A DNA stretch of 64,000 nt from Escherichia coli (GTDB lineage Bacteria > Pseudomonadota > Gammaproteobacteria > Enterobacterales > Enterobacteriaceae): the NCBI RefSeq assembly GCF_048403405.1, contig NZ_CP183129.1; one strand, given 5' to 3'. Below the pieces are notes generated by a model. That model ran no database searches. It was not told the origin of the DNA and saw only the letters and a list, made by a program, of their open reading frames with translations. The position numbers and the translations under genes were made by a program. This document shows, one piece after another, positions 15,430 to 36,742 of this stretch; the stretch's first letter is position 1, and the number at the start of each line of letters is the position of its first letter.

Positions 15430-17655
15430 ATGAAAACGACGGGAGTTAAAGTAACGCTTTTGTCGCTGGTTGTCAGTTATTCCTGCGCTTTACAGGCCAA
15501 AAACGTGTCACTGGGGGACACGGCCGTGGCCACGGGGCAGCACAGTACGGCTGTCGGTGAGGGCAGTATGGCGCTGGGGAACAATATGACGGCGGAACAG
15601 GCGCAGGCGGCGATGAAAGCCCAGAATGCCCTGTTGCAGAACAGGGCGCAGGCGCATGAGCAGTACATGCAGACGCAGGCCCTGTTTGACAGTAAATCGC
15701 TGGCGAACAGCAATATTCTGGAGCGTCAGGAAGCGATGAAACCGTTGTTGCAGCAACAGGAGACCCTGGCGGGTCAGCGTACCGCGCAACAGCAGCAGGT
15801 GACACAGGCACAGCAGGTCGCTGACCGGATGGCACAGATTTATGAACGCAATCTGGGGGCGGTTTCACAGATTGTGGATGAGAATTTTGTGGCGTTGTGG
15901 CAGCAGGGGCAGGCTGACCGTCTGGCTCAGGAAGTGAAAAAACGGGTTGAGCAGGATACGTCGGTCAGTAATGACACGCAGTTTTATGTCAGTTATGTTA
16001 ATGCCTATATTGAAGCGAAAACCAGAAGTGCTCTGGTTAATGAAACCATCAAAGAGAAAACCGGTTCTCAGATTACGACCAACTATCAGGGTGTGGCCCT
16101 GTCCCCGGTACTGAGTGCCGGCCACAGTGATAAAGCGATGCTGTGGTCGGATGCGGTCACGGACAGCGAGCAGAAGAAACAATTATCCCGTTTACACCTG
16201 AATACCGCGGCCCTGAAGGGCGTTGCCGGTTATCAGGAAGAGCTGGCCAAAATCGCCCTGATCACCTCTGCGGACGGGAAAAAGAATCTGTATCAGGCTT
16301 ATCAGAAAAATGCCCGGCAGCAAATTGAGCAGGGGCTCACCGGGGTGACAGAGGCCGGGAAGCAGATCCTGTCAGAGCTGTATCTGGATAACATCGATGA
16401 AGGCACCTTTAATCAGATGGTCAGCGGTATTTTCACCCGCTATGAGAATCAGCTGAACTACCTGATCCAGCTGGATAAGGTCAACAGTTTATCGCCGGAC
16501 AGCCCGGATTATGCCAAAGAGTTACAGCAACTGCTGGTACTGGAAAGCCGTCCCCGGGATAACACCGTCGGGCTGAATACCAACCCGGAGGCGCTGAAAC
16601 AAAAAGTGGATCAGTACCTTCAGGACAATGCGCTCAGTCACACACAGGCCATGTCGTCACAGGCCACACAGCTGAAACAGCAGTTATCGGCGGAAAAAGC
16701 CGTCACCGATCAGGCACTGAAGCAGGCAGAAACGCAACTCTCCCGGCTGGAAAAGGATCTCTCCGCGCTGGATACAAAGTTGTCTGATTTGCGTCCGACG
16801 CAATCCGAGCTGGAAAACATCCGGGATCTGGAGAAGGTGAAAGCCGAACTGGCGCAGAAACAGGCGGAATATCAGGCGGCGGATAAAGCCCTGAATGAGG
16901 CGCAGAGTACGCTGAGTCAGGGTAAACAGGCTGTTGCGGTCGGGGATAAGAGTCTGGCGCTGGGCGAAAAATCCGTGGCACTGAGTGTGGATGCCCGGGC
17001 GCTGGCGAAAAACAGTGTGGCACTGGGGGACGGCAGCCTGGCTGACCGGGATAACAGCGTGTCCGTCGGCCGTGAAGGTCAGGAACGTTTTCTGACGCAT
17101 GTGGCGGCCGGCATTGCAAAAACGGATGCGGTCAACAAAGGGCAACTGGATGAGGAGCGGGATGCGCGTATTGCCGGCGATAAGCAGACGCTGAAACAGG
17201 CCATGGACTACACCGATGTGAGCATTCAGTACAGTGAGGCGAAGATAAACAAGCGGATTACGGAAGAGCAGCAGGCCCGTATTGAGGGGGAGGAACAGAC
17301 CCTGGCGGCCGCAAACCGCTATACCGATGAGACGTTCGGGCAGGTGACCCACACGGTGCTGGACAATGCCCGGCAGTATACCGACCAGCGTTTCAGTCAG
17401 CTGGACAATAAAATCAGTCAGGTGGAGAAACGGGCCAATGCGGGGATTGCCGGGGTGACCGCAATATCTTCCATTCCGTATGTGAACAGTGAGCGTTTTT
17501 CGTTCGGGATGGCGATGGGGCATTACCGTGATGCACAGGCGATAGCCACCGGGGTGCAGTATAAGCCGACGGCCAATACCAATGTGCGCCTGAATGCGTC
17601 ATGGAATAACGGCGGCGATACCAGTATCGGCGCCGGGTTTGCGGTGGGCTGGTAA
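15430..17655 (+). CDS. trimeric autotransporter adhesin-like protein (YadA-type C-terminal anchor)
   Basis: Signal peptide; head-like repeats (SLALGEKSVALS...SVALGDGSLA), neck-like RFLTHVAAG motif, long Q/A-rich coiled-coil stalk, C-terminal beta-barrel anchor ending FSFGMAMGHY...GAGFAVGW. Confidence 0.65.
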   Translation: MKTTGVKVTLLSLVVSYSCALQAKNVSLGDTAVATGQHSTAVGEGSMALGNNMTAEQAQAAMKAQNALLQNRAQAHEQYMQTQALFDSKSLANSNILERQEAMKPLLQQQETLAGQRTAQQQQVTQAQQVADRMAQIYERNLGAVSQIVDENFVALWQQGQADRLAQEVKKRVEQDTSVSNDTQFYVSYVNAYIEAKTRSALVNETIKEKTGSQITTNYQGVALSPVLSAGHSDKAMLWSDAVTDSEQKKQLSRLHLNTAALKGVAGYQEELAKIALITSADGKKNLYQAYQKNARQQIEQGLTGVTEAGKQILSELYLDNIDEGTFNQMVSGIFTRYENQLNYLIQLDKVNSLSPDSPDYAKELQQLLVLESRPRDNTVGLNTNPEALKQKVDQYLQDNALSHTQAMSSQATQLKQQLSAEKAVTDQALKQAETQLSRLEKDLSALDTKLSDLRPTQSELENIRDLEKVKAELAQKQAEYQAADKALNEAQSTLSQGKQAVAVGDKSLALGEKSVALSVDARALAKNSVALGDGSLADRDNSVSVGREGQERFLTHVAAGIAKTDAVNKGQLDEERDARIAGDKQTLKQAMDYTDVSIQYSEAKINKRITEEQQARIEGEEQTLAAANRYTDETFGQVTHTVLDNARQYTDQRFSQLDNKISQVEKRANAGIAGVTAISSIPYVNSERFSFGMAMGHYRDAQAIATGVQYKPTANTNVRLNASWNNGGDTSIGAGFAVGW

Positions 17656-17733
17656 CCGGTGAAAACCCGCCGGTCACCGGCGGGTTTTGATGCGCTTTTC
17701 TTCTCTCACCGTTCGTTTGTGAGGACTGACCGA

Positions 17734-20941: not shown

Positions 20942-22419
20942 TGACAAACAGTTATCTCGAGTATTTTCTCACGCTGCTGGCCTGGGTGGTGAATAACGGA
21001 TTGTGGTCGGTACTGACCAGCACCGGGCTGTTTGCGCTGCCGCTGGTCTTTAAAGTGCTGGGGATCTGGCTGAAAGTGCGGGAAGAGGGGGAGGATGAGG
21101 GTAACAAAGGTTCACTGGCAATTGTGCGTATCGAGAACGCGCTTTACGGCGCCTTTGTGGTGATCCTGTTTTGTTGTGTGCCGTTGATGGAGGTGAGTGT
21201 CAGTACCCTGCAATTTGATACCAGCCGGACCAAAACCTGCGGCACCTGGACCCCGGTGAAGCCGGCGGAATCCGGTTACAGCGGCGTGGTGTCGTCACTG
21301 GATAATCAGACAGCCAAAATCCCGCTGTGGTGGATGCTGGTACATAAGCTGTCGAAAGGGGTGACTCAGGCGGCGGTGGCCAGCATTCCGTGCCGGCCGG
21401 ATTTGCGTCAGGTGCGTTTTGAGGTGCAGCACAGCAACATTAAAAATCCGGCGCTGGCTGCCGCACTTCAGGATTTTACGGATGACTGTTACTCACGTGC
21501 CCTGTATGACTGGAAAGCGAAAGATCAGGGAAAAACACAGGATGAAAAAACGTTACAGGATATCACCTGGATAGGCTCGGCCACCTTTATGAAAGGGGAA
21601 TATCATCAGATCCAGTCACGGACACCGCGGGCGGGCTTTCCCTGGGATGCCGACCGGGATGACGGGTATGCGAATGTCAACGGCAACGGTTACCCGACCT
21701 GTTATCAGTGGTGGAATGATGCGAATGCAGGGTTACTGAAACTTGTCAAAGAGCAGACCGATGAAGGGATGTGGCTGCGTGCCCGGGCGGCGATGAAGCT
21801 GATTAATAAAAACTCGAAAGAGTTTGAGGAGGCCATCGTCCGCCGGCTGGTGAGTCCGGCGAATCTGGATGTCTCCGGCGGCCGGGTATACCGGGGATAC
21901 GGGGGTAATGCGGATATGACGGTGATGAATGAGCTGGCCAGAATGGGAGGGGTAGCCGGGACTTCGCTGGCGTCACTGGGGGCATTCCCTGCCTTTGATA
22001 CGATGCGACAGTCCTTACCGATGGTGCAGGGGCTGATGTTAATGGCGGTGTATATCATGATCCCGATGGTGCTGATGTTTTCGGCGTATGAATTTAAGAC
22101 GGCGATAACGGTGACGTTTGTGATATTTGCGCTGAACTTTCTGACATTCTGGTGGGAGCTGGCACGCTGGATAGACAGCTGGATGATGGAGGCACTGTAT
22201 AATTCCGATACGCACAGTCAGTGGAATATGAACGGGCTTCAGAACACGTCTGATGATGTCATTATGAACCTGGTAATGGGAACGATGTTTTTGGTGTTGC
22301 CGGCGTTGTGGTTGACAGCATTTGGTTGGGCTGGAGCTAAAGTTGGGTCCGAGCTAGGTAATATGACATCTAACGCGACTTCACCTGCGCATAGTGCGGG
22401 GGGAAAGGAGGACAGTTAG
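20938..22419 (+). CDS. TraG-like conjugal transfer membrane protein (TraG N-terminal domain type)
   Basis: 493 aa polytopic membrane protein, last gene of the GC-rich pore block. Confidence 0.5.
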   Translation: MMTNSYLEYFLTLLAWVVNNGLWSVLTSTGLFALPLVFKVLGIWLKVREEGEDEGNKGSLAIVRIENALYGAFVVILFCCVPLMEVSVSTLQFDTSRTKTCGTWTPVKPAESGYSGVVSSLDNQTAKIPLWWMLVHKLSKGVTQAAVASIPCRPDLRQVRFEVQHSNIKNPALAAALQDFTDDCYSRALYDWKAKDQGKTQDEKTLQDITWIGSATFMKGEYHQIQSRTPRAGFPWDADRDDGYANVNGNGYPTCYQWWNDANAGLLKLVKEQTDEGMWLRARAAMKLINKNSKEFEEAIVRRLVSPANLDVSGGRVYRGYGGNADMTVMNELARMGGVAGTSLASLGAFPAFDTMRQSLPMVQGLMLMAVYIMIPMVLMFSAYEFKTAITVTFVIFALNFLTFWWELARWIDSWMMEALYNSDTHSQWNMNGLQNTSDDVIMNLVMGTMFLVLPALWLTAFGWAGAKVGSELGNMTSNATSPAHSAGGKEDS

Positions 22420-22493
22420 CAGAACAAGCTATTTCTAAAAAAGTTAACTAATAATATTTTGAAGCCAGCTGCAAAATTTAGTTTTGTGGCTGG

Positions 22494-22901
22494 CTAATCT
22501 TCGTCAATATTTATTCCGTTCATATAATATCCAAAACCTTGGTTGCCATTTCTAAAGTCGTCACTATTGCCAACGAGATTGGATTGCCATTCATTATTGT
22601 TATCAGTGGATTGAATGTTATTTCCTGAAGAAATATCAATGTGTTCTATTACAGAAAATAAAATCACCAACGCTCCAAAGGTAAATAGGATGTACAAACT
22701 GAAATAAGCCAGTAACGCGATGACTGCGAGAGTTATAGATACCAGTGGAATATGCCCCAGCCAACCCGGCATATTTTTGCTTTTGGCGCTTGCCACACAG
22801 TTCTTATCGAAAGCCTTCAATTTTTTGATTAGCCATTTTGCTTTATAAGCTGCTTTTATGCCCCAGCGTTCTCCTCTGGAAGCGGCTGTTTTATCACTCA
22901 T
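22494..22901 (-). CDS. hypothetical small membrane protein (AT-rich cargo)
   Basis: 135 aa, central long hydrophobic segment, Asn/Asp-rich tail, very low GC. Confidence 0.4.
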   Translation of the reverse strand: MSDKTAASRGERWGIKAAYKAKWLIKKLKAFDKNCVASAKSKNMPGWLGHIPLVSITLAVIALLAYFSLYILFTFGALVILFSVIEHIDISSGNNIQSTDNNNEWQSNLVGNSDDFRNGNQGFGYYMNGINIDED

Positions 22902-23243
22902 TTCCCCCTCCGGTAATCAGTGAGTCTGATTTATCTCATGCTTGTCGTCTATCGTTAATACAATTTTAGGTCGATTTTTAATCATTGTCTACATCTTGTG
23001 AGTTATGCACATATCCACGGTCACCAAGCCAGTGCAACCCGATGCCAACAAGCAATCGGGTAAACGGGAGCGTACAGGGCATCGGCCCTGATGGTGGCGG
23101 TGGGTATGTGTATAACTTTTTTGTTGCCTTCATATAAAAATCTTATTCTTTCATCTGGATGGATTTATTGAATTTGATTTTTTATGTCAGTTTAAGTAAG
23201 TTTTTAATATGTATCCGAGTCCTTGTATATAGGAGATGATAAT

Positions 23244-23543
23244 ATGAATTTTATTTTTTGGTTTGTGGTCTTAATAGGGGCGGGATATTTGTGGAGGAGG
23301 AGGGGTTGGTTCAGTAAAATAAGGAAGCAATACTCAAGGAGAAAAACAACATTAAATGGTAACAAAGGATGTTTATATAATAAAAAAAATGACAATGATG
23401 CTTTGGAAGGTAATGGGGATTGTAATAATTTTTATTCTGAGAATAAAGAAAGTTTCTTTTGGTTAATGATTGAGAGAGGTATTAAATTTTACAGAAAAGA
23501 ATATTTGACTACGATTACTGAAAAAAATATCATGATAAGTTAG
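23244..23543 (+). CDS. hypothetical small membrane protein (AT-rich cargo)
   Basis: N-terminal TM followed by basic stretch; RBS aggag 8 nt upstream of ATG 23244. Confidence 0.4.
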   Translation: MNFIFWFVVLIGAGYLWRRRGWFSKIRKQYSRRKTTLNGNKGCLYNKKNDNDALEGNGDCNNFYSENKESFFWLMIERGIKFYRKEYLTTITEKNIMIS

Positions 23544-23782
23544 TGAGCTGGTTTGGTGAGAAATGTTATATACATTGTCAGGTTAGTTTAGGGAGTTTAT
23601 TTATATTCCCAAAACAAAAAAATTTTACTGATGAAGAACAAAAACGTTTTTTTTCTGTTTGTAATAGAATGTCCTTGGATTTTATTTTAACATTTAAAAC
23701 TAATATGCCCTTCTTACGTGTTTCTGTTGACTCTATGAAAAATAAACCGCCTGTTTGGGATGTTTATGATAAATCCAAATAA
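23543..23782 (+). CDS. hypothetical small protein, overlapping previous stop
   Basis: 79-aa ORF, ATGA overlap with upstream gene suggests coupling. Confidence 0.3.
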   Translation: MSWFGEKCYIHCQVSLGSLFIFPKQKNFTDEEQKRFFSVCNRMSLDFILTFKTNMPFLRVSVDSMKNKPPVWDVYDKSK

Positions 23783-23957
23783 AAACATATCTGATTGTTG
23801 AGTTTTCGTGATTAAAGATGGCATTGATTATTAATACGATGAAGAACCAACAAGGGGATATTTAATAAAGAGAAAAAGGAGGATGTAAAATATTCTCCTT
23901 TTTCTTTATCGGGTATTGACGAAAAAAGAAAGTTTGATTAAATTTACCACGTTACAC

Positions 23958-24176
23958 CGTTGCTTAATGCAACATTGCCAATGCTTCGGTTGTCTGAGAG
24001 AAGCGCCTACGGGTGACAACAATGCCAATCCGGCAATCTGAGAGGAACGCCTACGGGTGATTGCCACTGCCAATCCTCGGGTCATCTGAGACGAGGGCCT
24101 ACGGGCGATGACAGAACTCCGTTCGTCCTTGAAATCGACGGAGGGTGATAACAGAATAGCGTTATCATCAGGATTA
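23958..24176 (+). repeat. Structured direct repeat copy 1 (three tandem hairpin units plus two further hairpins)
   Basis: Near-identical to 26392-26612; three about 45-nt units with stems gttgtc/gacaac, ggcaatc/gattgcc, gtcatc/gatgac around a conserved loop tgaga..gcctacggg. Confidence 0.8.
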
Positions 24177-24389
24177 ACTGCACTTCAGTGACCATGTCAC
24201 AGCTATCCGGTCACTCGGATATCCACAAAAAAGCAGAGTATGCGATAACGTGTATCTGCCTCTTCTGATGTGTTCTGACGAATACGTCCTGCTTTCTGCA
24301 ACCTTTGTATGCCCGGTATGACGCGTTTCCATTGCGCAGCTTTGGAAAGCGGCATCTTCGGAGCAATACATTGAGCAGCAGAATGATGG

Positions 24390-24436
24390 GCGTGCGTCAC
24401 TTTCGTCAAGTGAAACGAAGACAAAGTGACGCACGC
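24390..24436. promoter_or_regulatory. Long imperfect palindrome upstream of the recombinase-like gene
   Basis: gcgtgcgtcactttcgtc ... gacaaagtgacgcacgc, about 17-bp arms, no flanking T-run. Confidence 0.4.
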
Positions 24437-24824
24437 AAGTGCATACGCTCAGAACGCTTCAATACTGGTCTTACAGCAAAACTGACAATCTGACAGACAT
24501 GTAATGCATTGCTCAGAACGGCTGAAAGTCTTTCAACGCTCAACGTTTATATGATGATAAAAACGTATAACATTATGAAAAAAGGAGAAAAAACGACACG
24601 ATACCAAGGCGACGTCAGGAAACTGACGGACGGAGGTGCCCTGATAACGGGGGCCGGTCTGATGACCGCAAACAGTTCAGAGAACTGATTTGATACCTCT
24701 CAACAACTCAACCTTTTATCGCCCCGGTGCTCAGGTATCTGTCAGGTCGCAGGATGCGCAATATAAAACCGTCGCGCCGGGAAAAGGTAACCAGTTGAGA
24801 GCGAAAGAGGCGGAGAATCAGAGA

Positions 24825-25733
24825 ATGTCCAGAAGAGCAAAAGCCCTGTCCCGTGAAATGCATATCCTTGCACGTCAGGCCGGAGGGAGCTTTAAAACCA
24901 TTGCAGACCGGGTCAAAATTGCAGAACGGGTTGCGGCAGAGCTGGCCGGGTTGAATATTCAGATACGATCTGTTGAGCAACTGAAATCCCGCCATATTGA
25001 AATGTATATCCATGCCCGCAGAGAACAGAATATCAGTTTACGCAGCTGTCAAAACGAAATGTCGGCTATCCGGGCGATATTTCGTGTTGCCGGACGTCAT
25101 AAACTGGCTGACCCTAAACATGAGCGCCTCAGTAATGAGGCGCTGGGGCTTTCAGGTGCCAGCAGGGCTGGCACCCGTACCGCGATATCGGACGAGCGCT
25201 TTCACGAAGCGCTCGCTCGGATTGAGCCTTATGATCAGGGGGTGGCATTAACTATGCAGTTATCCCGTAGTCTGGGATTGAGAAATGAAGAAGCCGTGCA
25301 GTCAGTAAAATCATTACGGACCTGGCAACAGGCGCTTAAAAACGGTAAAGATCGCGTTCATGTGGTTTTTGGGACAAAAGGAGGCAGACCCCGTGAAGCA
25401 TTAGTGCCGGATAAAGCCCGTGTATTAACATTAATTAATAAAGCCATTGAATATGCGGATAAACATAACGGTTATTTAATTAATCGTCCGTCATTACATT
25501 CTGCCAAAGATCGTTATATTAATGTGATGCGACGGATAGGCGGATTTATTCACGAAGAATCAAATCATGGTTTACGGTATGCCTATGCTCAGGATGTTGA
25601 AAAATATTATCTCAGTCAGGGATTCAGTCAAAAGGAAGCCTATGCATTAACCTCCATGGATTTAGGGCATGGTGACGGTCGTGGCGATTATATTAAACGG
25701 GTTTATAGTCAGAAAGGAGATATTGAGGAATAA
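24825..25733 (+). CDS. tyrosine recombinase-like protein (integrase-fold)
   Basis: Motifs in canonical order: LGLRNEE (Arg), HGLRYAYA (HxxR), LGHGDGRGDYIKRVY (candidate Tyr nucleophile); start taken at ATG 24825 after aagaggcggaga, though the ORF could extend to 24690. Confidence 0.5.
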   Translation: MSRRAKALSREMHILARQAGGSFKTIADRVKIAERVAAELAGLNIQIRSVEQLKSRHIEMYIHARREQNISLRSCQNEMSAIRAIFRVAGRHKLADPKHERLSNEALGLSGASRAGTRTAISDERFHEALARIEPYDQGVALTMQLSRSLGLRNEEAVQSVKSLRTWQQALKNGKDRVHVVFGTKGGRPREALVPDKARVLTLINKAIEYADKHNGYLINRPSLHSAKDRYINVMRRIGGFIHEESNHGLRYAYAQDVEKYYLSQGFSQKEAYALTSMDLGHGDGRGDYIKRVYSQKGDIEE

Positions 25734-25740
25734 GATAAAA

Positions 25741-26352
25741 ATGAAAGTCTGTTTAATTATTTTGTTTATTAATTTTGCTTTTTGTTTTCCGTTAATGGCG
25801 AAGACGTTATTTTTAGGTGATTCATTAACGGCTGTTTATGAAATGTCAGCAAAATATGTTTTGGATGAAAAAATAAAAACAGAATATGTTTCCGGTTCGG
25901 GGTTAATAAATAAAAGTAAAAAAGATTGGATCGCTTTCGTGAATAATTTCGATTTGCGGGAGTTTGATAATGTGATTATTAGTCTCGGAACAAATGATTT
26001 TGTTCAATATGGTTCGGATGAATGGCTGAAATATTACAGTCTGGTATTTCAATTCATTGCTGAAATTCAAAGTGAAAATCCGTTAGCGACAATTGTCTGG
26101 ATATCTCCACCACATTTAAAAAATCCGGAACATGAACGTTATTTAATACATACCCGGCATATAATTAAACACAGTGCGATGTTATTAAATATTCATTATC
26201 TGGATATTAATCAGCCTCATATATTAGGAACGCAATGGCAATCTGTTATTCATAATGAAACTGTACGAACTGATGATGGAATACATATTACCCGTAAAGG
26301 GGGAGTACGGGTGATCAGAGAAGTGGTAAAAATCCTGAATGGGCAGGATTGA
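25741..26352 (+). CDS. secreted SGNH/GDSL-family hydrolase (esterase/acylhydrolase)
   Basis: Signal peptide then GDSL block (LFLGDSLTA), GTND block, C-terminal DDGIH; very low GC; RBS gagga. Confidence 0.6.
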   Translation: MKVCLIILFINFAFCFPLMAKTLFLGDSLTAVYEMSAKYVLDEKIKTEYVSGSGLINKSKKDWIAFVNNFDLREFDNVIISLGTNDFVQYGSDEWLKYYSLVFQFIAEIQSENPLATIVWISPPHLKNPEHERYLIHTRHIIKHSAMLLNIHYLDINQPHILGTQWQSVIHNETVRTDDGIHITRKGGVRVIREVVKILNGQD

Positions 26353-26391
26353 CAAAGATAAAAAAACGGCTAAAAATGAATCTGCTTATCT

Positions 26392-26612
26392 CGTTGCGTA
26401 ATGCAACTTGCCAATGCTTCGGTTGTCTGAGAGAAGCGCCTACGGGTGACAACAATGCCAATGTTCCGGCAATCTGAGAGGAACGCCTACGGGTGATTGC
26501 CACTGCCAATCCTCGGGTCATCTGAGACGGGAGCCTACGGGCGATGACAGAACTCCGTTCGTCCTTGAAATCGACGGAGGGTGATAACAGAATAGCGTTA
26601 TCATCAGGATTA
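26392..26612 (+). repeat. Structured direct repeat copy 2
   Basis: Same orientation as 23958-24176; differs by 3 substitutions and two small indels. Confidence 0.8.
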
Positions 26613-26640
26613 TTTTTACGCAACGCTTCATATAACCTGC

Positions 26641-26700
26641 CCGCTGACGGGGAAATCACCCGTCATCAGGGAATTTCTCCGTTTTTTCAGGAGAAATTCA
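26641..26700 (+). promoter_or_regulatory. Two-hairpin leader sequestering the RBS of the downstream gene
   Basis: gacggg-loop-cccgtc followed by tttctcc-TTTTTT-ggagaaa ending 4 nt before ATG 26701; same architecture at 28081-28147. Confidence 0.5.
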
Positions 26701-27063
26701 ATGAAGGTATCTACATTTCCGGAATCGTCTTTTTTTGACGATCTGCACTCTCTCACGCAACTGCATCACCTCTCAGGTGAGCTCGACATGGTTCTTGCTT
26801 TTGTCCGTCTGGATATTGGCGAGCACCCGGACGAAGATAATTTTCCGCCAAACTTCTGGATAATCAGTGCCGTTGCAGAGCAACTGGGCGCGTTATCTGT
26901 GGAGGCTGATTTTACCCGTCCACATCTTGAGAAAATGGTCCGCGCTGTCTGGAAAGCGGCTGAGCAAACGCCTTATGCGTCTGACTTTCGCCGTATCTAC
27001 AACGATGCGATCAAAAATGCACAGTTTGAAGATCCGGTTGAAGCGCTGATGTTTGGTGCTTAA
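26701..27063 (+). CDS. hypothetical acidic protein (ICE cargo)
   Basis: 120-aa ORF directly after the structured leader. Confidence 0.45.
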   Translation: MKVSTFPESSFFDDLHSLTQLHHLSGELDMVLAFVRLDIGEHPDEDNFPPNFWIISAVAEQLGALSVEADFTRPHLEKMVRAVWKAAEQTPYASDFRRIYNDAIKNAQFEDPVEALMFGA

Positions 27064-29854: not shown

Positions 29855-29926
29855 ATATTGTTTTTTCACCTGATGGTGTATCTCACCGTCAGGACGGGAT
29901 ACACCTTTTTTATTGAGGGTATTCCG

Positions 29927-30901
29927 ATGAAAAAATCTGACCGTAAACGCCGTCCGGCAGCGGATAAGCCGGTTCGCGATATTTATCAGGAAGTGACTGA
30001 CCGTATTGTGGCCGCGCTGGAAAAAGGCACCCGTCCGTGGAAACGACCATGGCGGCCGTCGGAAGGGACAGGCACCGGTTTTCCGGTGAACGCCCTGACC
30101 GGTCATTCCTACCAGGGGATAAATGTGCTGCTGTTATGGTTGTCGGCGGCGGAGCAGGGCTTTGGTTACGATATCTGGCTGACTTACCGTCAGGCACAGC
30201 AACTGGGTGGCCATGTCCGTAAAGGCGAAATGGCGACGAATACTGTGATATTCAAACCGGTGAAGGTGCCGGCAAAAGACCGTCACGGTGAGCTGCTGCG
30301 GGATGAACACGGTGAGGTGGTGATGACGGAGGTGCCGATGATAAAGGCGAATCCGTTATTTAACATAGCCCAGTGTGATGACCTGCCGGCGCATTTTTAC
30401 GAAAACCGGCGACTACCCGGAGAGGAGACAGCAGGGATAACCCTGCCGGCCACGCACCGGGTGCTGGATATCCTGAATGCCAGCGGCGTGAAGGTGACCA
30501 GTGCGGCGCAGAACCGGGCGTATTACAGTCCGTCACAGGACCGGATTGTGATGCCGCTGTCGTCACAGTTTGACCGGAATGCCGATTACCAGGCCACCTT
30601 ACTGCATGAGTTGGTGCACAGTACCGGTCATCCGTCCAGGCTGGCCCGTGAAGGCATCACCTCATCGTCCCTGAAGTTTGGTGACCCGCTGTACAGTTTT
30701 GAGGAGCTGGTTGCGGAAATGGGCAGCGCTTTTCTTTGTGCGCAGTTAAGCGTCGAGGGAGAAGTGAACCATGAAAGCTATCTTGACAGCTGGCTGCGGG
30801 TACTGAAATCGGACAAAAAAGCGTTGTTCCGGGCCGCCGGGCAGGCCCGCCAGGCCTGTGAGTTTTTACTGAATGTGGCCGCATCCCGACAGGCCGCGTA
30901 G
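29927..30901 (+). CDS. ardC: ArdC-like antirestriction protein (ssDNA-binding N-domain plus zincin-like metalloprotease domain)
   Basis: HExxH motif in LLHELVHSTGH, size about 325 aa, basic N-terminus; RBS gaggg. Confidence 0.7.
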   Translation: MKKSDRKRRPAADKPVRDIYQEVTDRIVAALEKGTRPWKRPWRPSEGTGTGFPVNALTGHSYQGINVLLLWLSAAEQGFGYDIWLTYRQAQQLGGHVRKGEMATNTVIFKPVKVPAKDRHGELLRDEHGEVVMTEVPMIKANPLFNIAQCDDLPAHFYENRRLPGEETAGITLPATHRVLDILNASGVKVTSAAQNRAYYSPSQDRIVMPLSSQFDRNADYQATLLHELVHSTGHPSRLAREGITSSSLKFGDPLYSFEELVAEMGSAFLCAQLSVEGEVNHESYLDSWLRVLKSDKKALFRAAGQARQACEFLLNVAASRQAA

Positions 30902-30910
30902 GAGACTGCG

Positions 30911-31210
30911 ATGAACAAAATGACCATTATCCGCTTTCAGTTACTGGTACATCAGTTACTGCAAGTGCATTACGGCATTACGCTGAGTGATACCGGATTG
31001 TCCGATGATGCTGAGGTGTCCCGGATGATTGAACTCGGGATATCGCCGGTATCGGTGGTCAACCGTCTGGTGGATAAGTACCACCTGGATAAACTGAATG
31101 CATCCTGTTATCTGCCGGCATCCCCGTATGTCAGTGACAGCGATGCCTTACTTGCACAGGCTCAGCTGAGCGGTGCCATTAACCCGGATGTCATGCCGGA
31201 TAATCCTTAA
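30911..31210 (+). CDS. hypothetical protein
   Basis: 99-aa ORF coupled downstream of ardC. Confidence 0.4.
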   Translation: MNKMTIIRFQLLVHQLLQVHYGITLSDTGLSDDAEVSRMIELGISPVSVVNRLVDKYHLDKLNASCYLPASPYVSDSDALLAQAQLSGAINPDVMPDNP

Positions 31211-32766: not shown

Positions 32767-32941
32767 TAAAACATTATTCATGTAATCTTCTGTTTTGTTG
32801 CCGGAATTATTTTTGTGGATGAGTTAACGTAATGAAAATAAGGTGCATTTATTATTTATTCTTATCCTGATATTAAAATAATTTATGTTTTATTTAATGT
32901 TGCGTTGTTGTTTTTACCGAATTAAAGAGGCAGTAACACCG

Positions 32942-34534
32942 ATGTTACCGTGGTTTCGTAAATCGCTTTCCCGGAAAGCGGAAGAGAAAACATTGCGTGT
33001 TTCCCCGGGAAACACGCAGGAAAGGCCATTATTTATCCGTGACAGTGACGGCTTTTATTTACCGCAGGCAGCTGACGTATTGCTGACCACACCGCAGCGG
33101 CAAAACTGGTTACAGCAAATCAGCCGGGTGGTAGCGTTACCGGATAACCAGTACCGGGCACTTTGCCTGTCTCCTTTGCAGACGCTGGCAGAACGACTTC
33201 AGTGTGTGCCGGCATCAAAAACCGGGAAATATGCCGGCGAAGGGGGATTGCTGGATTTAACGCTGAATACGACAGCCTGGTGTATGCGGATGTCCCAGAA
33301 AGAGATGCTGCCCCGCGGGCTTCCGTCGGAAGAGCAGAGCCGTCAGTTCAGCGCCTGGAATGTGTGTGTTTTTTATACCGGACTGTTTTACTGGTTACCG
33401 TTAACGGCACAGTTTGAGGGACAACTGAACAGCCTGTCGGCGTGGCAGCCGGGGATGAGTGCGCCCACCGTACCGTATCGTTTTCGCTTTCATGAGCCGG
33501 TGCCGGATATGACGCATTTTCGCCGGACGACGGGGGCCATGATGGCTTTCCGGCTATTACCGGAGAAGGTAATCCACTGGTTGTCGGGTACACCAAAGGC
33601 GCTTCAGGCGTTGTCTGACGTGGTGACCGAGCCGGTAAACGGTGATAATGATTTACAGCGTGTGCTGAATGAGGCTCTGGCTGCGTTCCCCGCCGGTGCA
33701 TTGCCGGCATTTTCTTCCGTTGTTTCTATGTCAGCGCCTGATGCTTCGTCTTCAGTGCTATCAGGGCAGCCGGAGAATGATATCGCGTCATTGGCGCCTG
33801 CTGAATTGGCGCAAAAGCCACAACCTGAAACTCCGTCTGTAACATCTGTATTGCCTCCGGAGTCTGTTACTTCAGAAAAAACAGAGAACGGAATTCACTG
33901 CGATATACCGCTAATGGTAGTTGCAGAAGCAGAAGGTGCGGTTGTCCATGGGGCACTTGATTCTGCTGATGAAAAAACTGTCTCAGATATGTCTCCTCCG
34001 TTATCTGAGGATATGAAATATGCACTTGAATTATCAGGTTTAATGCCGGAAATCTTATCTGATACTCAGACGGGCAATCGTGATGAGAAGGATGAACAGC
34101 GCGAAAACTGTCTGAGTATAAAAAATGAAGGAGAGGCTTTCTGGGCGTGGTTTAAGTCCGGATTATTGGGCGGAAAACTGGCAATAAATACGCCGGATGC
34201 GAAGGTTCACTGTGTCATGGAGTATTTGTTTTGCCAGAGTCCGGCTGTTTTTTATCAGTACATACAGGAGGCGGGTAAAAATCCGGATGATATCGGCCAT
34301 ATTATTTCTTCTTTTGAATCCCTTAAATTGCACCGGATTATTCGTCATGATACCCGACAAACAGGGCATTTCAGGGCTCGAATTTATGGTGAAAAACTGA
34401 ATCCGCTGAGTGATAACAAAACATTAATTACGTTATCCCATAAAAAAATCAATGGTTACATGATTAAAGGACGTCAGATTTTTGGCATGAATATGCCGGA
34501 GGAATCATTGTTTATTCGTATTGTCGGAAGTTAA
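32942..34534 (+). CDS. large ICE protein next to the integrase; putative relaxase-like (positional inference only)
   Basis: 530-aa ORF with aagagg RBS and AT-rich promoter region; no recognisable relaxase motif found by eye. Confidence 0.3.
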   Translation: MLPWFRKSLSRKAEEKTLRVSPGNTQERPLFIRDSDGFYLPQAADVLLTTPQRQNWLQQISRVVALPDNQYRALCLSPLQTLAERLQCVPASKTGKYAGEGGLLDLTLNTTAWCMRMSQKEMLPRGLPSEEQSRQFSAWNVCVFYTGLFYWLPLTAQFEGQLNSLSAWQPGMSAPTVPYRFRFHEPVPDMTHFRRTTGAMMAFRLLPEKVIHWLSGTPKALQALSDVVTEPVNGDNDLQRVLNEALAAFPAGALPAFSSVVSMSAPDASSSVLSGQPENDIASLAPAELAQKPQPETPSVTSVLPPESVTSEKTENGIHCDIPLMVVAEAEGAVVHGALDSADEKTVSDMSPPLSEDMKYALELSGLMPEILSDTQTGNRDEKDEQRENCLSIKNEGEAFWAWFKSGLLGGKLAINTPDAKVHCVMEYLFCQSPAVFYQYIQEAGKNPDDIGHIISSFESLKLHRIIRHDTRQTGHFRARIYGEKLNPLSDNKTLITLSHKKINGYMIKGRQIFGMNMPEESLFIRIVGS

Positions 34535-34549: not shown

Positions 34550-35620
34550 ATGAAAGATAATCACAGTTCTGATGAACATCAGCAGAAAGTGGATGTATGG
34601 GAGCAAATGCTGAGTAATTACTTTTACAATAAAGTATTACGGCCGGATACGGAGAAAACATACCGTAAGATGGTACGTCTTTTTCTGCGTTATTGCGGAG
34701 TTTGTGAAAATGCGTTACCGCTACCGGATGAAGTGACACATGAGCATGTGCTGAGATGGCGAAGAAATGAGCTGAATATTCAGAAAGTCCGGGAACGGAC
34801 ATGGAACACAAAAACCAGGCATATGCAGTCTCTGTATAATTATTGGATCAAAAAAGGGATTGTTTCACTTAAAGAAAACCCGTTCTCAGAAACACAAATT
34901 GAACCGGGTGAAAAACAGAAAAAAGTCTATACACAATCACAACTGAGAACGATTTATCGTATTCTGGAACAATTTCAGCAACAGGAAAATATGCTGCCAC
35001 CTGATCAGGCTCACTTTCAGGCATGTGCGGTTTATCCCACTCGATTCTGGTTTGCTGTGCTGGAAACGCTGAGGCTGACGGCTATTCGTTTTAACCAGCT
35101 GATTAACCTGCATATTGGCGATCTGGATTTTGAGGAGTGTACGATCACATTGCGCAGTGAAAGCAGTAAAAATCACCGGGAATATCAGATTGCTTTTGTT
35201 CAGCCACTACGTTGTTTACTGGCGCCCTTGGTTGAGGAAATGCGTTGTCACGGGGCGGATAAAAACGATATTTTGTTTGATGTTCATCGTCTTTATCATA
35301 AACGACTATCCCGCTCTGAAACTCCACTCAGTCAGACGATACGTTCTTTTTTCCGTCGTTTATCAAAGGAATGTGGATTTCATGTCAGTCCCCATCGTTT
35401 CAGACATACACTGGCGACGACATTAATGAAACATCCTGAACGTAATATGCAATTGACGAAACAGATGTTAGGACACCGTAGTCTCTCTTCAACTATGGAA
35501 TATATTGCTCTGGATGCATACAGTACAGTCAGGATCTTGGAGAATGAGTTAGGTGAGTTTTTAACAATGGGATTAGGTGGTGAACTTACAAGGCTAGCAT
35601 CAAAAAGACAGAGGATGTGA
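34550..35620 (+). CDS. int: tyrosine site-specific integrase (ICE integrase)
   Basis: C-terminal catalytic region HRFRHTLAT ... LGHRSLSSTMEYI; RBS gcaggagg; adjacent to tRNA-Phe. Confidence 0.85.
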   Translation: MKDNHSSDEHQQKVDVWEQMLSNYFYNKVLRPDTEKTYRKMVRLFLRYCGVCENALPLPDEVTHEHVLRWRRNELNIQKVRERTWNTKTRHMQSLYNYWIKKGIVSLKENPFSETQIEPGEKQKKVYTQSQLRTIYRILEQFQQQENMLPPDQAHFQACAVYPTRFWFAVLETLRLTAIRFNQLINLHIGDLDFEECTITLRSESSKNHREYQIAFVQPLRCLLAPLVEEMRCHGADKNDILFDVHRLYHKRLSRSETPLSQTIRSFFRRLSKECGFHVSPHRFRHTLATTLMKHPERNMQLTKQMLGHRSLSSTMEYIALDAYSTVRILENELGEFLTMGLGGELTRLASKRQRM

Positions 35621-35637
35621 TATAAATAAAAAATATT

Positions 35638-35671
35638 TACACAAAGTTGACTATTTTATCAACTTTGTGTA
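35638..35671. promoter_or_regulatory. Perfect 13-bp inverted repeat downstream of int (terminator or integrase/att-associated site)
   Basis: tacacaaagttga ctatttta tcaactttgtgta; a second hairpin aagggtgtt/aacaccctt lies at 35690-35714. Confidence 0.4.
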
Positions 35672-35853
35672 TAAGCTGGATTTGATTGAGAAGGGTGTTC
35701 TAGGAAAACACCCTTACTTGATAAATCATTGTCAACCACGTGAGAAGTCATGAACGTGATTACAACTGAAATTCAAGTTTTAACCGAGCGTTGGAGATCT
35801 CACTTCCAGCGACCGTGCTAGGGAAACGGTTACACCATTTCCGAAAGGAAAGA

Positions 35854-35929
35854 TGGTGCCCGGACTCGGAATCGAACCAAGGACACGGGGATTTTCAATC
35901 CCCTGCTCTACCGACTGAGCTATCCGGGC
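35854..35929 (-). tRNA. pheV: tRNA-Phe (GAA anticodon)
   Basis: Reverse complement reads GCCCGGATAGCTCAGTCGGTAGAGCAGGGGATTGAAAATCCCCGTGTCCTTGGTTCGATTCCGAGTCCGGGCACCA, the canonical E. coli tRNA-Phe, 76 nt with CCA. Confidence 0.95.
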
Positions 35930-36034: not shown

Positions 36035-36742
36035 TCAGGCAAACCAGGCGGTCCAGGCGGCGGAAAGCGGCATTGCCAGAAGGAGTGCTGGAAGCATGTT
36101 GACCACCGGGAACATTTTAATGCCACAGATGCGTAATCCGGTTGCCAGCAGCAATAAACCGCCTACGGCGCTGAAGTCTGCCATCATCGACGGTGTGGTC
36201 AGCGGTAATATCAGCGCGGCAGCCCACGCCAGCGTTAACTGGATGATCAGTAATGGAATGCTAATCACCGACACCGCAATACCCAGCGAGCAGGCGAAGA
36301 TCATCGCCGTAAAGAAATCAAGAAATGACTTGGCGATTAAAATACTTGGATCGCCGGTCATCCCTTCGTTCATCGCCCCGAAGATTCCGGTGCCGCTGGC
36401 GCAAAACAGGACAATAATCGCGACAAAATTCTGAATAAAAGATTCATGCGCTGGCTTCTTACGCGAGTGGTGAAACAGATTATGCGCTTTGGCGACCACT
36501 GTATTGACGCCTTTTTCCAGCAGACAAATTTCGCCGATTAATGCTCCGAGTAAGGTTGCTAAAACCATCGCCGGAAGGTTGGCGCATTTCACCACCAGTA
36601 AAATACCAATCCCCAGCGATGCCAGACCAAAAATTGATGTCATGGAGACGCGGATACGTTCCGGTAAGCGTTGGCTAAGGAGTGCGCCGAAAACGCCACC
36701 CAGTAAGACTGCACTTGCGTTGATAAAAGGGCCGATGACCAC
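36035..36742 (-). CDS. yqgA: DUF554 family inner membrane protein YqgA
   Basis: 235-aa polytopic membrane protein in the conserved pheV-yqgA-speC arrangement. Confidence 0.8.

Follow-up and report, generated by a model that had tools for sequence, protein, structure and literature searches.

When an integrase gene ends close to the 3' end of an intact tRNA gene, it may be asked which mobile element borders the tRNA, how that element came to be there and what the short stretch of DNA between the two genes does. This arrangement is found in the stretch of Escherichia coli DNA analysed here (64 kb, referred to below as the window), where an integrase gene (int) is followed, 233 bp further on (35621-35853), by the 3' end of a tRNA-Phe gene. 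[quoted passage not shown] The explanation that we favour, with somewhat better than even confidence taken as a whole, is that an ICEPm1 element ends at the tRNA-Phe gene pheV and that the palindromes work as hairpins on the strand of the tRNA transcript. The parts of this explanation do not carry the same weight, and they are graded separately below. ICEPm1 itself, its tRNA-Phe target and its presence in Escherichia have already been published.

The conjugative element and its integrase

The int gene (34550-35620, plus strand, in agreement with the RefSeq coordinates) encodes a Xer-like tyrosine recombinase of 356 amino acids (PF00589, E=3e-20) and is transcribed towards the tRNA gene, the two genes being convergent. 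The catalytic motifs HxxR, H and Y are all present. The domains detected are a SAM-like N-terminal core-binding domain (residues 27-101) and the catalytic domain only, and the domain profile search found no N-terminal arm-binding domain. The protein is 100% identical over its 356 residues to the ICEPm1 integrase of Proteus mirabilis ATCC 29906 and Providencia stuartii, and the 233-bp arm between int and the tRNA is near-identical in the ICEPm1 elements of Proteus mirabilis and Providencia. A genome scan made with the integrase gave identical copies only.

Directly upstream of int lies traI (32885-34534, plus strand), coding for a MOBH relaxase of the PFGI-1 class (PF07514, PF07515) that scores 184 bits against TIGR03760, whose cut-off is 161 bits. 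TIGR03744 and TIGR03754, PFL_4706/TOL-type models for TraC and TraD, are also above their cut-offs, and further genes of the TIGR037xx family, belonging to a GI-type type IV secretion system (T4SS), are annotated in the element. The possibility that int closes a trio of tandem recombinase genes was discarded, the two upstream reading frames being those of a DUF1281 protein and of the TraI relaxase. The DNA to the left of the tRNA is thus an ICE with conjugation genes of the PFGI-1/SPI-7 type, a MOBH relaxase and a terminal integrase, as had been proposed.

The window matches E. coli GN02323 (NZ_CP095514.1) at 100% identity, and according to the RefSeq annotation of that record the right-hand 35.9 kb of the ICEPm1 body occupies positions 1-35853 (plus strand). 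This portion contains the GI-type T4SS genes, taaP, genes for ArdC, CbtA and the DUF1281 protein, traI and int, and the ICE extends about 56.6 kb beyond position 1. The cargo annotated in the same record consists of the TaaP adhesin and an NRPS/PKS siderophore cluster. An AlpA-family protein is also encoded by the ICE, and a parA/dnaB/parB module is present in it.

Insertion at pheV

The tRNA-Phe gene (anticodon GAA; 35854-35929, minus strand) is intact according to ARAGORN and to the Rfam tRNA model (68.3 bits), and its sequence is the same as that of K-12 pheV. The locus is identified as pheV because it is flanked by yqgA (36035-36742, minus strand; PF04474 and annotation) and speC. Apart from the tRNA, no known RNA family passed the Rfam threshold, the remaining matches lying far under it.

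The second copy of the tRNA 3' end, which the original prediction had reported missing from the window and had suggested seeking in the upstream genome, is indeed absent from these 64 kb and is found outside them. It is a perfect 51-bp repeat located 92,490 bp away (NZ_CP095514.1, 4143077-4143127), so the element, whose size had been left undefined, measures about 92.5 kb. With this copy present, the lack of any direct repeat, named in the original prediction as evidence against it, does not apply. The copy at the tRNA occupies 35854-35904 and corresponds to tRNA positions 26-76. When the outer flanks of both junctions were joined in silico, the rebuilt pre-insertion site was 100% identical over 851 bp to that of ATCC 25922 and other strains. 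Which of the two ends is called attL and which attR is a matter of the orientation chosen.

The repeat begins at the anticodon stem-loop and extends through the CCA, which places it in the anticodon-loop class of tRNA integration sites (bioRxiv 10.1101/2020.11.02.365908). Relatives of the element are known in circular forms with the order int-core-parA (pSGI4 and one Citrobacter plasmid); the same 51-bp segment constitutes the attP core of these circles, and the 233 bp between int and the tRNA are the element's own attP arm. In the case of SGI-4, the identity of attP with the tRNA stops within the 5' strand of the anticodon stem.

These data make it almost certain, as far as sequence comparison can tell, that the region is the integrase-proximal junction of an ICEPm1, an element of the SPI-7/pKLC102/PFGI-1 class, inserted in E. 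coli pheV. The same holds for the course of the insertion. The Xer-like recombinase acted on the 51-bp segment, present both in the circle and in the 3' part of pheV, and the crossover would have taken place at the anticodon-loop end of this segment. The copy carried by the ICE thus regenerates the intact tRNA, with a 5' part that is chromosomal and 51 nt at the 3' side that come from the element, and the original 3' end, together with the DNA that followed it, is pushed 92.5 kb away.

The ICE adjoins a resident P4-type pheV pathogenicity island in a tandem arrangement, and this island carries haemolysin and P-fimbriae genes. The E. coli copy of the ICE contains several IS fragments and pseudogenes in its cargo region, which could suggest a degenerate, fixed remnant whose junction features are functionless relics. 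We regard this as extremely improbable: the two 51-bp repeats are identical to each other, int is unchanged from the Proteus gene and keeps its catalytic motifs, and the same element, at pheV here, is located at pheU in E. coli strain HM670. Besides, the IS-rich segment belongs to Proteus ICEPm1 as well, where it has been termed a 'degenerate region' (PMC11278526), and the near-identity of the element in Proteus, Providencia and metagenomes implies recent transfer. The copy described here is complete and probably mobile; indirect support for its excision and transfer comes from the intact pre-insertion site of other strains, from the use of pheV and pheU in different strains and from the circular forms of relatives.

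Comparison with known elements

ICEPm1 was described in Proteus mirabilis HI4320 (Flannery et al. 2009, 2011, as cited in PMC11278526). It inserts in tRNA-Phe genes, is flanked by 52-bp repeats of which 51 bp lie within the tRNA, and occurs in Escherichia (PMC11278526). The element analysed here shares with it the integrase, the near-identical 233-bp arm, the tRNA-Phe target with its 51/52-bp repeat and the modules taaP, nrp-type siderophore cluster, GI-type T4SS and parA/dnaB/parB. The use of either pheV or pheU is a further shared feature. The differences are the E. coli host, the tandem arrangement with the P4-type island and the length of the repeat, reported as 52 bp whereas perfect identity covers 51 bp here.

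ICEPm2 (P. mirabilis BL95 and mouse E. coli M6-M19) shows the same junction architecture, with an integrase region about 94% identical and an arm 97% identical in which both hairpin stems are unchanged and the loops of both hairpins differ. Its repeat is stated to be of 51 bp and its cargo is different (PMC11278526). A single base is changed in the tRNA 3' end that it carries, so the tRNA regenerated by ICEPm2 differs from that of the host.

More distant are SGI-4 of Salmonella Typhimurium and the SPI-7-family ICEs found at tRNA-Phe, which have the same order of uvrD-like gene, traI and int at the end of the element. They use the same tRNA-Phe core, with parA and an SPI-7-type dnaB across the attachment site, and have an integrase only about 43% identical; hairpin 2 and the conserved arm block described below are present in them, and hairpin 1 is absent. 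In pKLC102 and PAPI-1 of Pseudomonas aeruginosa and in ICEHin1056, a MOBH relaxase is again followed by a terminal Xer-like integrase, but the latter is only about 30-33% identical, the arm sequences cannot be aligned with the ICEPm1 arm and the target is a different tRNA, reported to be tRNA-Lys in the case of PAPI-1 (PMC2704930). ICEclc of Pseudomonas knackmussii belongs to the same broad ICE class and has the same type of T4SS. Its integrase, of a different family from that of ICEPm1, is driven by an outward promoter located at the far end of the element. As int in the E. coli element reads outward at the very end, such a promoter arrangement is inapplicable to it.

Hairpins and conserved blocks of the attP arm

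The first palindrome, hairpin 1 (35638-35671), was predicted correctly as a perfect inverted repeat of 13 bp: its arms (35638-35650 and 35659-35671) are 100% complementary and enclose a loop of 8 nt. The second was rightly described as a perfect hairpin of 9 bp, with coordinates that have to be shifted by one. Hairpin 2 occupies 35691-35715, with 100% complementary arms at 35691-35699 and 35707-35715, a loop of 7 nt and a stem that can be extended over 35685-35722. The 110-nt stretch containing both repeats folds with z=-6.6 on the plus strand and -8.2 on the minus strand, and none of 200 shuffled sequences was as good. Differences between ICEPm1 and ICEPm2 in the hairpins are confined to the loops.

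Hairpin 1 forms 14 pairs on the minus strand. Its stem is AT-rich (4 G-C pairs out of 13-14) and folds at -16 to -18 kcal/mol. A formal pair-count among relatives revealed compensatory change in 5 of its 13 pairs, with a covariation score of 0.263; shuffles gave 0.123, none of the 500 reaching the observed value, and slid controls did not exceed 0.138. On the other hand, the outer TACA and the inner GTTGA are conserved as sequence, beyond the pairing. Hairpin 2 has been found in all the relatives examined at the tRNA-Phe site, including those with integrases only 42% identical; its position and pairing are kept while the sequence of the stem is almost wholly different. Across relatives, its imperfect pairs are nine A·C and no G·T when read on the plus strand, which makes them G·U pairs on the strand of the tRNA alone. 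These pairs were counted by a script with hand-defined arms because the MAFFT alignment put hairpin 2 out of register; the formal pair-count tool was applied to hairpin 1 only. From these comparisons among relatives, it is concluded that the palindromes are conserved and not a product of chance.

Three other features lie between hairpin 2 and the core. Alignment inspection across relatives gave a conserved block TCAACCAYG (35732-35740). The strongest conservation in the arm is that of the block TTTTAACCGAGCGTTGGAGATCTCACTTCCAGCG (35778-35811), which is kept in relatives down to 42% integrase identity. Within it, CGTTGGAG / CTTCCAGCG form an imperfect inverted repeat (35789-35811). The block is a candidate accessory site for recombination. 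Used as a search pattern in metagenomes, it added six loci, one of which (L017) is a chance match. Finally, a third small hairpin, GGAAACGGT-TAC-ACCATTTCC (35822-35842, minus strand), was read from the sequence 11 nt past the tRNA 3' end. Its single imperfect pair, C·A on the plus strand, becomes G·U on the minus strand, and no U tract follows its stem. The ICEPm2, L013 and L018 types have this hairpin too, and L014 has a weaker version of it.

Function of the palindromes

The insertion deprives pheV of its terminator. In the empty K-12 locus a canonical terminator lies 12 nt after the CCA. In the strain analysed, the terminator that used to follow pheV is now found at the far junction. The stem-loop followed by a U tract that is typical of intrinsic terminators is present in hairpin 1, on the minus strand only: the 14 pairs are followed by the tail AATATTTTTT, detected in the terminator scan, which corresponds to an A-rich tract of the plus strand (35621-35637) that relatives carry at the same place. 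In ICEPm1 the terminator scan and the fold found no U tract after hairpin 2 on either strand; in the relatives of the SGI-4 type it is hairpin 2 that bears the minus-strand U tract. Across 15 loci of the family, terminator-like sites were found on the minus strand in 9 (shuffle controls, mean 1.7, maximum 5) and on the plus strand in 2 (mean 0.7, maximum 3), so that they are enriched on the tRNA strand only. Even pKLC102 has a minus-strand terminator-like site after int.

It can be proposed that the hairpins end or process pheV transcripts that have lost their normal terminator and that they protect int and traI, which converge on the tRNA gene, against read-through that starts at the tRNA promoter. 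The canonical terminator would be formed by hairpin 1 and its U tract in ICEPm1, and by hairpin 2 and its U tract in the SGI-4 type. The part of the original prediction that saw a terminator in the palindromes would then hold for the tRNA strand and not for the int strand. That the hairpins are replacement terminators or insulators for pheV is a proposal to which we give about even odds. Several observations go against it. Hairpin 1, besides being AT-rich, lies 183-216 nt from the tRNA end, whereas the native pheV terminator and that of the neighbouring pathogenicity island are found 10-12 nt after the CCA. Hairpin 2 ends without a U tract in ICEPm1, and both imperfect pairs of hairpin 1 in relatives (n=2) are G·T on the plus strand, the opposite direction to those of hairpin 2. 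Six of the 15 loci had no minus-strand match under the strict perfect-stem rule, and the conserved TACA and GTTGA are also compatible with a protein-binding site.

This last point leads to a different reading, in which the palindromes would be duplex binding sites for accessory recombination proteins (an AlpA/Xis-like factor, IHF or extra integrase dimers) that shape the attP/attR arm for integration and excision. The palindromes are placed in the attP arm at less than 220 bp from the core, relatives share the TACA and GTTGA(C) sequences of hairpin 1, more conserved blocks and a third inverted repeat follow towards the core, and the ICE has an AlpA-family protein of its own. Nevertheless, the integrase has no arm-binding domain, and the half-site of hairpin 1 has no other copy in the 92-kb element, the other attP arm included; a search of the window and of loci L002 and L003 allowing up to 3 mismatches returned its own partner arm and two 3-mismatch matches at chance level outside the ICE. 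The persistence of hairpin 2 in position and pairing despite the change of its stem fits a structure better, and a strand bias of 9 to 0 in G·U pairs is unexpected if duplex DNA is recognised. We therefore hold this reading to be rather unlikely. The arm-type integrase sites of the original prediction are likewise unlikely, the recombinase being a short Xer-like one, and a lambda-type arrangement was rejected since an arm-binding domain is lacking and the half-site of hairpin 1 is not repeated on the other attP arm.

Conjugative plasmids usually have inverted repeats next to a conserved sequence at their origin of transfer (oriT). The same layout is seen in the arm, and the hairpins lie just downstream of traI-int, on the circle between the relaxase operon and the parA-dnaB-parB side, so the hairpins and the adjoining conserved block could be the oriT nicked by the adjacent MOBH TraI. 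The literature searched gave no oriT location for ICEs of this family. If the parA-dnaB-parB side were leading, as in classical plasmids, the plus strand would be transferred, but the mismatches of hairpin 2 favour folding of the minus strand. Hairpin 1 is, moreover, missing in several relatives of the SGI-4 type with closely similar relaxase synteny, and an oriT at this place seems quite unlikely.

It has been considered too that hairpin 1 may be an operator over an outward promoter (TTGACT, 17 nt, TATAAG; 35647-35675) that would switch on parA and the replication and partition genes only after excision and circularisation. The TTGAC and the 17-nt spacing are kept in relatives, even where the palindrome has decayed, and the 78 bp between the core and parA hold no promoter-like site. 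In PAPI-1, a pKLC102-like island of P. aeruginosa, expression of soj/parA from the circular form has been reported (Qiu et al. 2006, as cited in PMC2704930). An outward promoter plays a comparable part in ICEclc. Circularisation of ICEclc serves to rewire transcription across the attachment site (PMC2704930). However, no relative has a T as the sixth base of the -10-like hexamer (TATAAG, TATAAA, TAAAAA, TAACTA, TAAGGA), and the relatives of the SGI-4 type keep TTGACT with nothing resembling a -10 hexamer. The site was not called by the promoter scan, and the leader would hold hairpin 2 and two more structured blocks. A promoter within hairpin 1 was rejected on the first and third of these grounds, and the switch as a whole is very unlikely.

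A broader proposal, that the hairpins and blocks form a combined control region, with an oriT or a circle-specific parA switch built into the attP arm, is also unlikely; if it were true, such a region would physically couple transfer or maintenance functions of the whole ICE family to the excised state.

Implications

The presence of a complete and probably mobile copy of ICEPm1 in an E. coli isolate from human bloodstream is useful for annotation and epidemiology. In this isolate the ICE, with its adhesin and siderophore cluster, is stacked beside an island with haemolysin and P-fimbriae at the same tRNA gene. A modest new point concerns the int-tRNA arm, whose hairpins have been kept by compensatory changes in the ICEs of the tRNA-Phe family and show a strand bias that points to the tRNA transcript. 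If the proposed role is confirmed, an element that displaces the terminator of a tRNA gene would supply a substitute for it and would protect its own convergent integrase gene.

Identity of the element and layout of the junction

The single tRNA gene detected by ARAGORN in the window, a minus-strand tRNA-Phe (GAA) at 35854-35929, scores 68.3 bits against Rfam. Its sequence equals that of K-12 pheV; the gene is intact, as the original prediction had claimed. The integrase gene int (34550-35620, plus strand; PF00589, E=3e-20), with the same coordinates in the RefSeq annotation of an identical genome record, encodes a tyrosine recombinase, a Xer-like protein of 356 amino acids composed of SAM-like and catalytic domains only. 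[quoted passage not shown] A human blood isolate, E. coli GN02323, has a chromosome that matches the window with 100% identity, and the locus is recognised as pheV by yqgA and speC, which lie to the right of the tRNA.

The predicted right junction of an ICE at tRNA-Phe is borne out by the conjugation genes, the relaxase, the terminal int and the pheV flanking genes, all of which were found. The conjugation genes belong to the TIGR037xx/PFL-family set, in which the ATPase TraC and the coupling protein TraD score above curated cut-offs, and a MOBH relaxase of the PFGI-1 class lies directly upstream of int. The cargo comprises an adhesin, taaP, as well as a large siderophore cluster of the NRPS/PKS kind, and an SPI-7-type parA, dnaB and parB module is located at the far end. 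The integrase is 100% identical to proteins from Proteus mirabilis ATCC 29906 and Providencia stuartii NCTC11800, in whose genomes the 233-bp arm is near-identical. All the sequence-level characters of ICEPm1 are thus present, and judged by them the element is ICEPm1. According to the literature, ICEPm1 targets tRNA-Phe, preferring pheV with pheU also possible, and makes 52-bp direct repeats; the repeat of ICEPm2 overlaps the tRNA over 51 bp, and Escherichia contains copies with over 99% identity to ICEPm1 (PMC11278526). ICEPm1, the target it uses, the repeats of 51/52 bp and the fact that it occurs in Escherichia are therefore already known. In a collection of 5,426 E. coli genomes the junction is carried by 23, one of which (HM670) has it at pheU.

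Some other features of ICEPm1 are recorded here. The trimeric autotransporter adhesin gene taaP (15486-17711) lies in the middle of the conjugation cluster, between a TraC-type ATPase gene and TIGR03757/03756-family genes. Within 22000-27000 (about 24882-25790), the GC content falls to as little as 0.33; this patch, which contains an annotated 'integrase domain-containing protein', an SGNH hydrolase and several hypothetical genes, looks like a separate insertion. Besides, an ArdC anti-restriction homologue (ArdcN and zincin peptidase domains) is directly followed by a CbtA-family toxin gene at 30911-31210 (both within 29858-31210), next to which no antitoxin is annotated.

The far junction and the empty site

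[quoted passage not shown] Leftward in the source genome, the ICE ends just past parA, and the direct repeat that the original prediction proposed to look for is there: at NZ_CP095514.1, 4143077-4143127, the final 51 nt of the tRNA recur as a perfect copy, 92,490 bp from the copy within pheV and about 56.6 kb to the left of window position 1. Outside this copy there is a canonical terminator, and then the P4-type integrase of a second island with hlyCABD and pap genes. Two islands stand in tandem at pheV, ICEPm1 first, then the displaced tRNA fragment and the island headed by the P4-type integrase, where many IS fragments are found (L003, the source-genome stretch with the far end, 21078-50000; NZ_CP095514.1, 4143077 onward). 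When the empty site was rebuilt in silico from the outer flank, one 51-bp copy and the 5' part of the tRNA with yqgA, the resulting 851 bp matched other E. coli, such as ATCC 25922, over the full length with 100% identity; therefore ICEPm1 entered, precisely, a pheV already holding a pathogenicity island. That the ICE is a degenerate remnant is contradicted by its identical repeats, its intact integrase, the use of both pheV and pheU and its near-identity across genera.

Relatives of the junction and the att core

Relatives were gathered from integrase homologues of 42-78% identity with their contigs, from a metagenome pattern scan and from plasmid-form relatives. The order traI, int, arm and convergent tRNA-Phe is kept in Xenorhabdus, Morganella, Salmonella, Klebsiella and E. 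coli, and pKLC102 and ICEHin1056 resemble ICEPm1 in having a relaxase followed by a terminal integrase. In circular records (pSGI4 and a Citrobacter plasmid) the arm is joined to parA via the core, the 51-bp att identity segment. On a 512-kb chromosomal contig of X. nematophila F1 (L015, 3559-3910), int is followed by the full 51-bp core and then by parA and dnaB, an arrangement that suggests head-to-tail tandem elements; in X. budapestensis (L011, 3559-3800) a truncated core from which 1 nt is deleted is not followed by a tRNA, and the junction has the look of a decayed remnant.

The identity block starts at the anticodon stem-loop and ends with the CCA (tRNA positions 26-76), a pattern known from integrases whose target is the anticodon-loop sublocation (bioRxiv 10.1101/2020.11.02.365908). 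An inferred crossover at the anticodon-loop end of the block is supported by two observations: the regenerated tRNA of ICEPm2 and of two more distant relatives has, close to its 3' end, a base that comes from the element, and in circular SGI-4 (Salmonella genomic island 4) the attP identity stops within the anticodon stem. The regenerated tRNA-Phe reads CCCGAACTCGG versus CCCGGACTCGG in the host (ICEPm2 locus L004, 4559-4634; also L013, L014, L019 and L020), a C67 to U change that turns the acceptor-stem pair G6-C67 into G·U, and thus host pheV is left slightly altered. The ICEPm1 tRNA copy in the window is wild type.

Related to the far end, an inverted repeat (TTCTCAC...GTGAGAA; L003, 21003-21030) overlaps the ribosome-binding site and start of parA, and SGI-4 has at the same position an 11-bp perfect repeat of different sequence (L027, 3762-3792). 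Since the position is conserved and the sequence variable, this suggests an operator or RNA hairpin controlling parA.

Two hairpins in the arm

Both palindromes noticed in the arm are perfect: hairpin 1 pairs 35638-35650 with 35659-35671 (13 bp, 8-nt loop) and hairpin 2 pairs 35691-35699 with 35707-35715 (9 bp, 7-nt loop), the latter one position away from where it was first placed. They are not due to chance, and the 110-nt piece containing them folds with z=-6.6 (plus strand) and -8.2 (minus strand) relative to shuffles. Differences between ICEPm2 and ICEPm1 in hairpin 1 are confined to the loop. Among ten sequences, 5 of its 13 pairs changed on both sides with pairing kept, and its covariation score was 0.263 versus 0.123 for shuffles (0/500 as high) and at most 0.138 with a slid partner; the outer TACA and inner GTTGA are conserved as sequence too. 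The SGI-4 group lacks hairpin 1. Hairpin 2 occurs at the same position in every examined relative sharing the tRNA-Phe site, with stem sequences that mostly differ. It has ten imperfect pairs, of which nine read A·C on the plus strand, equivalent to G·U wobbles on the minus strand, and none reads G·T; for nine apparently independent events at equal chances, the calculated two-sided probability of this 9-to-0 split is about 0.004. As wobble appears only on the minus strand, the bias points to a structure formed by that strand when single.

Possible functions of the arm

The original prediction offered arm-type integrase sites as one role for the hairpins. This is unlikely, given the domain content of Int and a motif that is not repeated: the hairpin-1 half-site has no further copy in the 92-kb element. 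Sites for accessory proteins are possible in the palindromes, and more so in a 31-nt block at 35778-35811, distinct from both, which is the best conserved part of the interval, holds a third imperfect inverted repeat (CGTTGGAG / CTTCCAGCG) and is recognisable in relatives at 42% integrase identity. Between hairpin 2 and this block, a 13-nt direct repeat (35731-35759; GTCAACCACGTGA / GTCATGAACGTGA; 77% identity, 16-nt spacing) may be a chance match.

The hairpins are also possible candidates for oriT: on the circle the arm is placed between the relaxase operon and the would-be leading region, and we found no published oriT position for the ICEPm1 family, but the strand bias of hairpin 2 opposes the strand expected to be transferred. 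[quoted passage not shown] On this sequence evidence, it seems rather improbable that the arm contains an oriT or a circle-specific switch.

The other suggested role, a terminator, gains support for hairpin 1 on the minus strand, which also carries the tRNA. In K-12, whose pheV is empty, a canonical terminator lies 12 nt beyond the CCA, and that of the resident island, 10 nt after the CCA, was shifted 92 kb away by the insertion of ICEPm1. A consensus scan of the ICEPm1 arm gave a terminator-like site on the minus strand only, consisting of hairpin 1 followed by AATATTTTTT; the corresponding plus-strand A-rich tract is present in relatives. When the int-to-core intervals of 15 family loci were scanned by the same rules, with 200 shuffles, minus-strand sites were found in 9 (shuffle mean 1.7, maximum 5) and plus-strand sites in 2 (mean 0.7, maximum 3). 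In the SGI-4 type and a Klebsiella relative the match is hairpin 2 with a UUUUCU tail, and pKLC102 has a minus-strand terminator-like site after int. The terminator reading has weak points: the stem of hairpin 1 is AT-rich and about 200 nt from the tRNA end, parts of it are conserved as sequence, its two imperfect pairs are G·T on the plus strand, and hairpin 2 of ICEPm1 has no U tract.

We found no description of such a family-wide, covariation-supported hairpin pair with strand bias, which constitutes a small addition and not a new kind of system. The most economical reading would be that ICEPm1 provides the interrupted tRNA gene with a terminator, or with processing hairpins, of the element's own, and that these would also shield the convergent int and traI from antisense transcription driven by the tRNA promoter.
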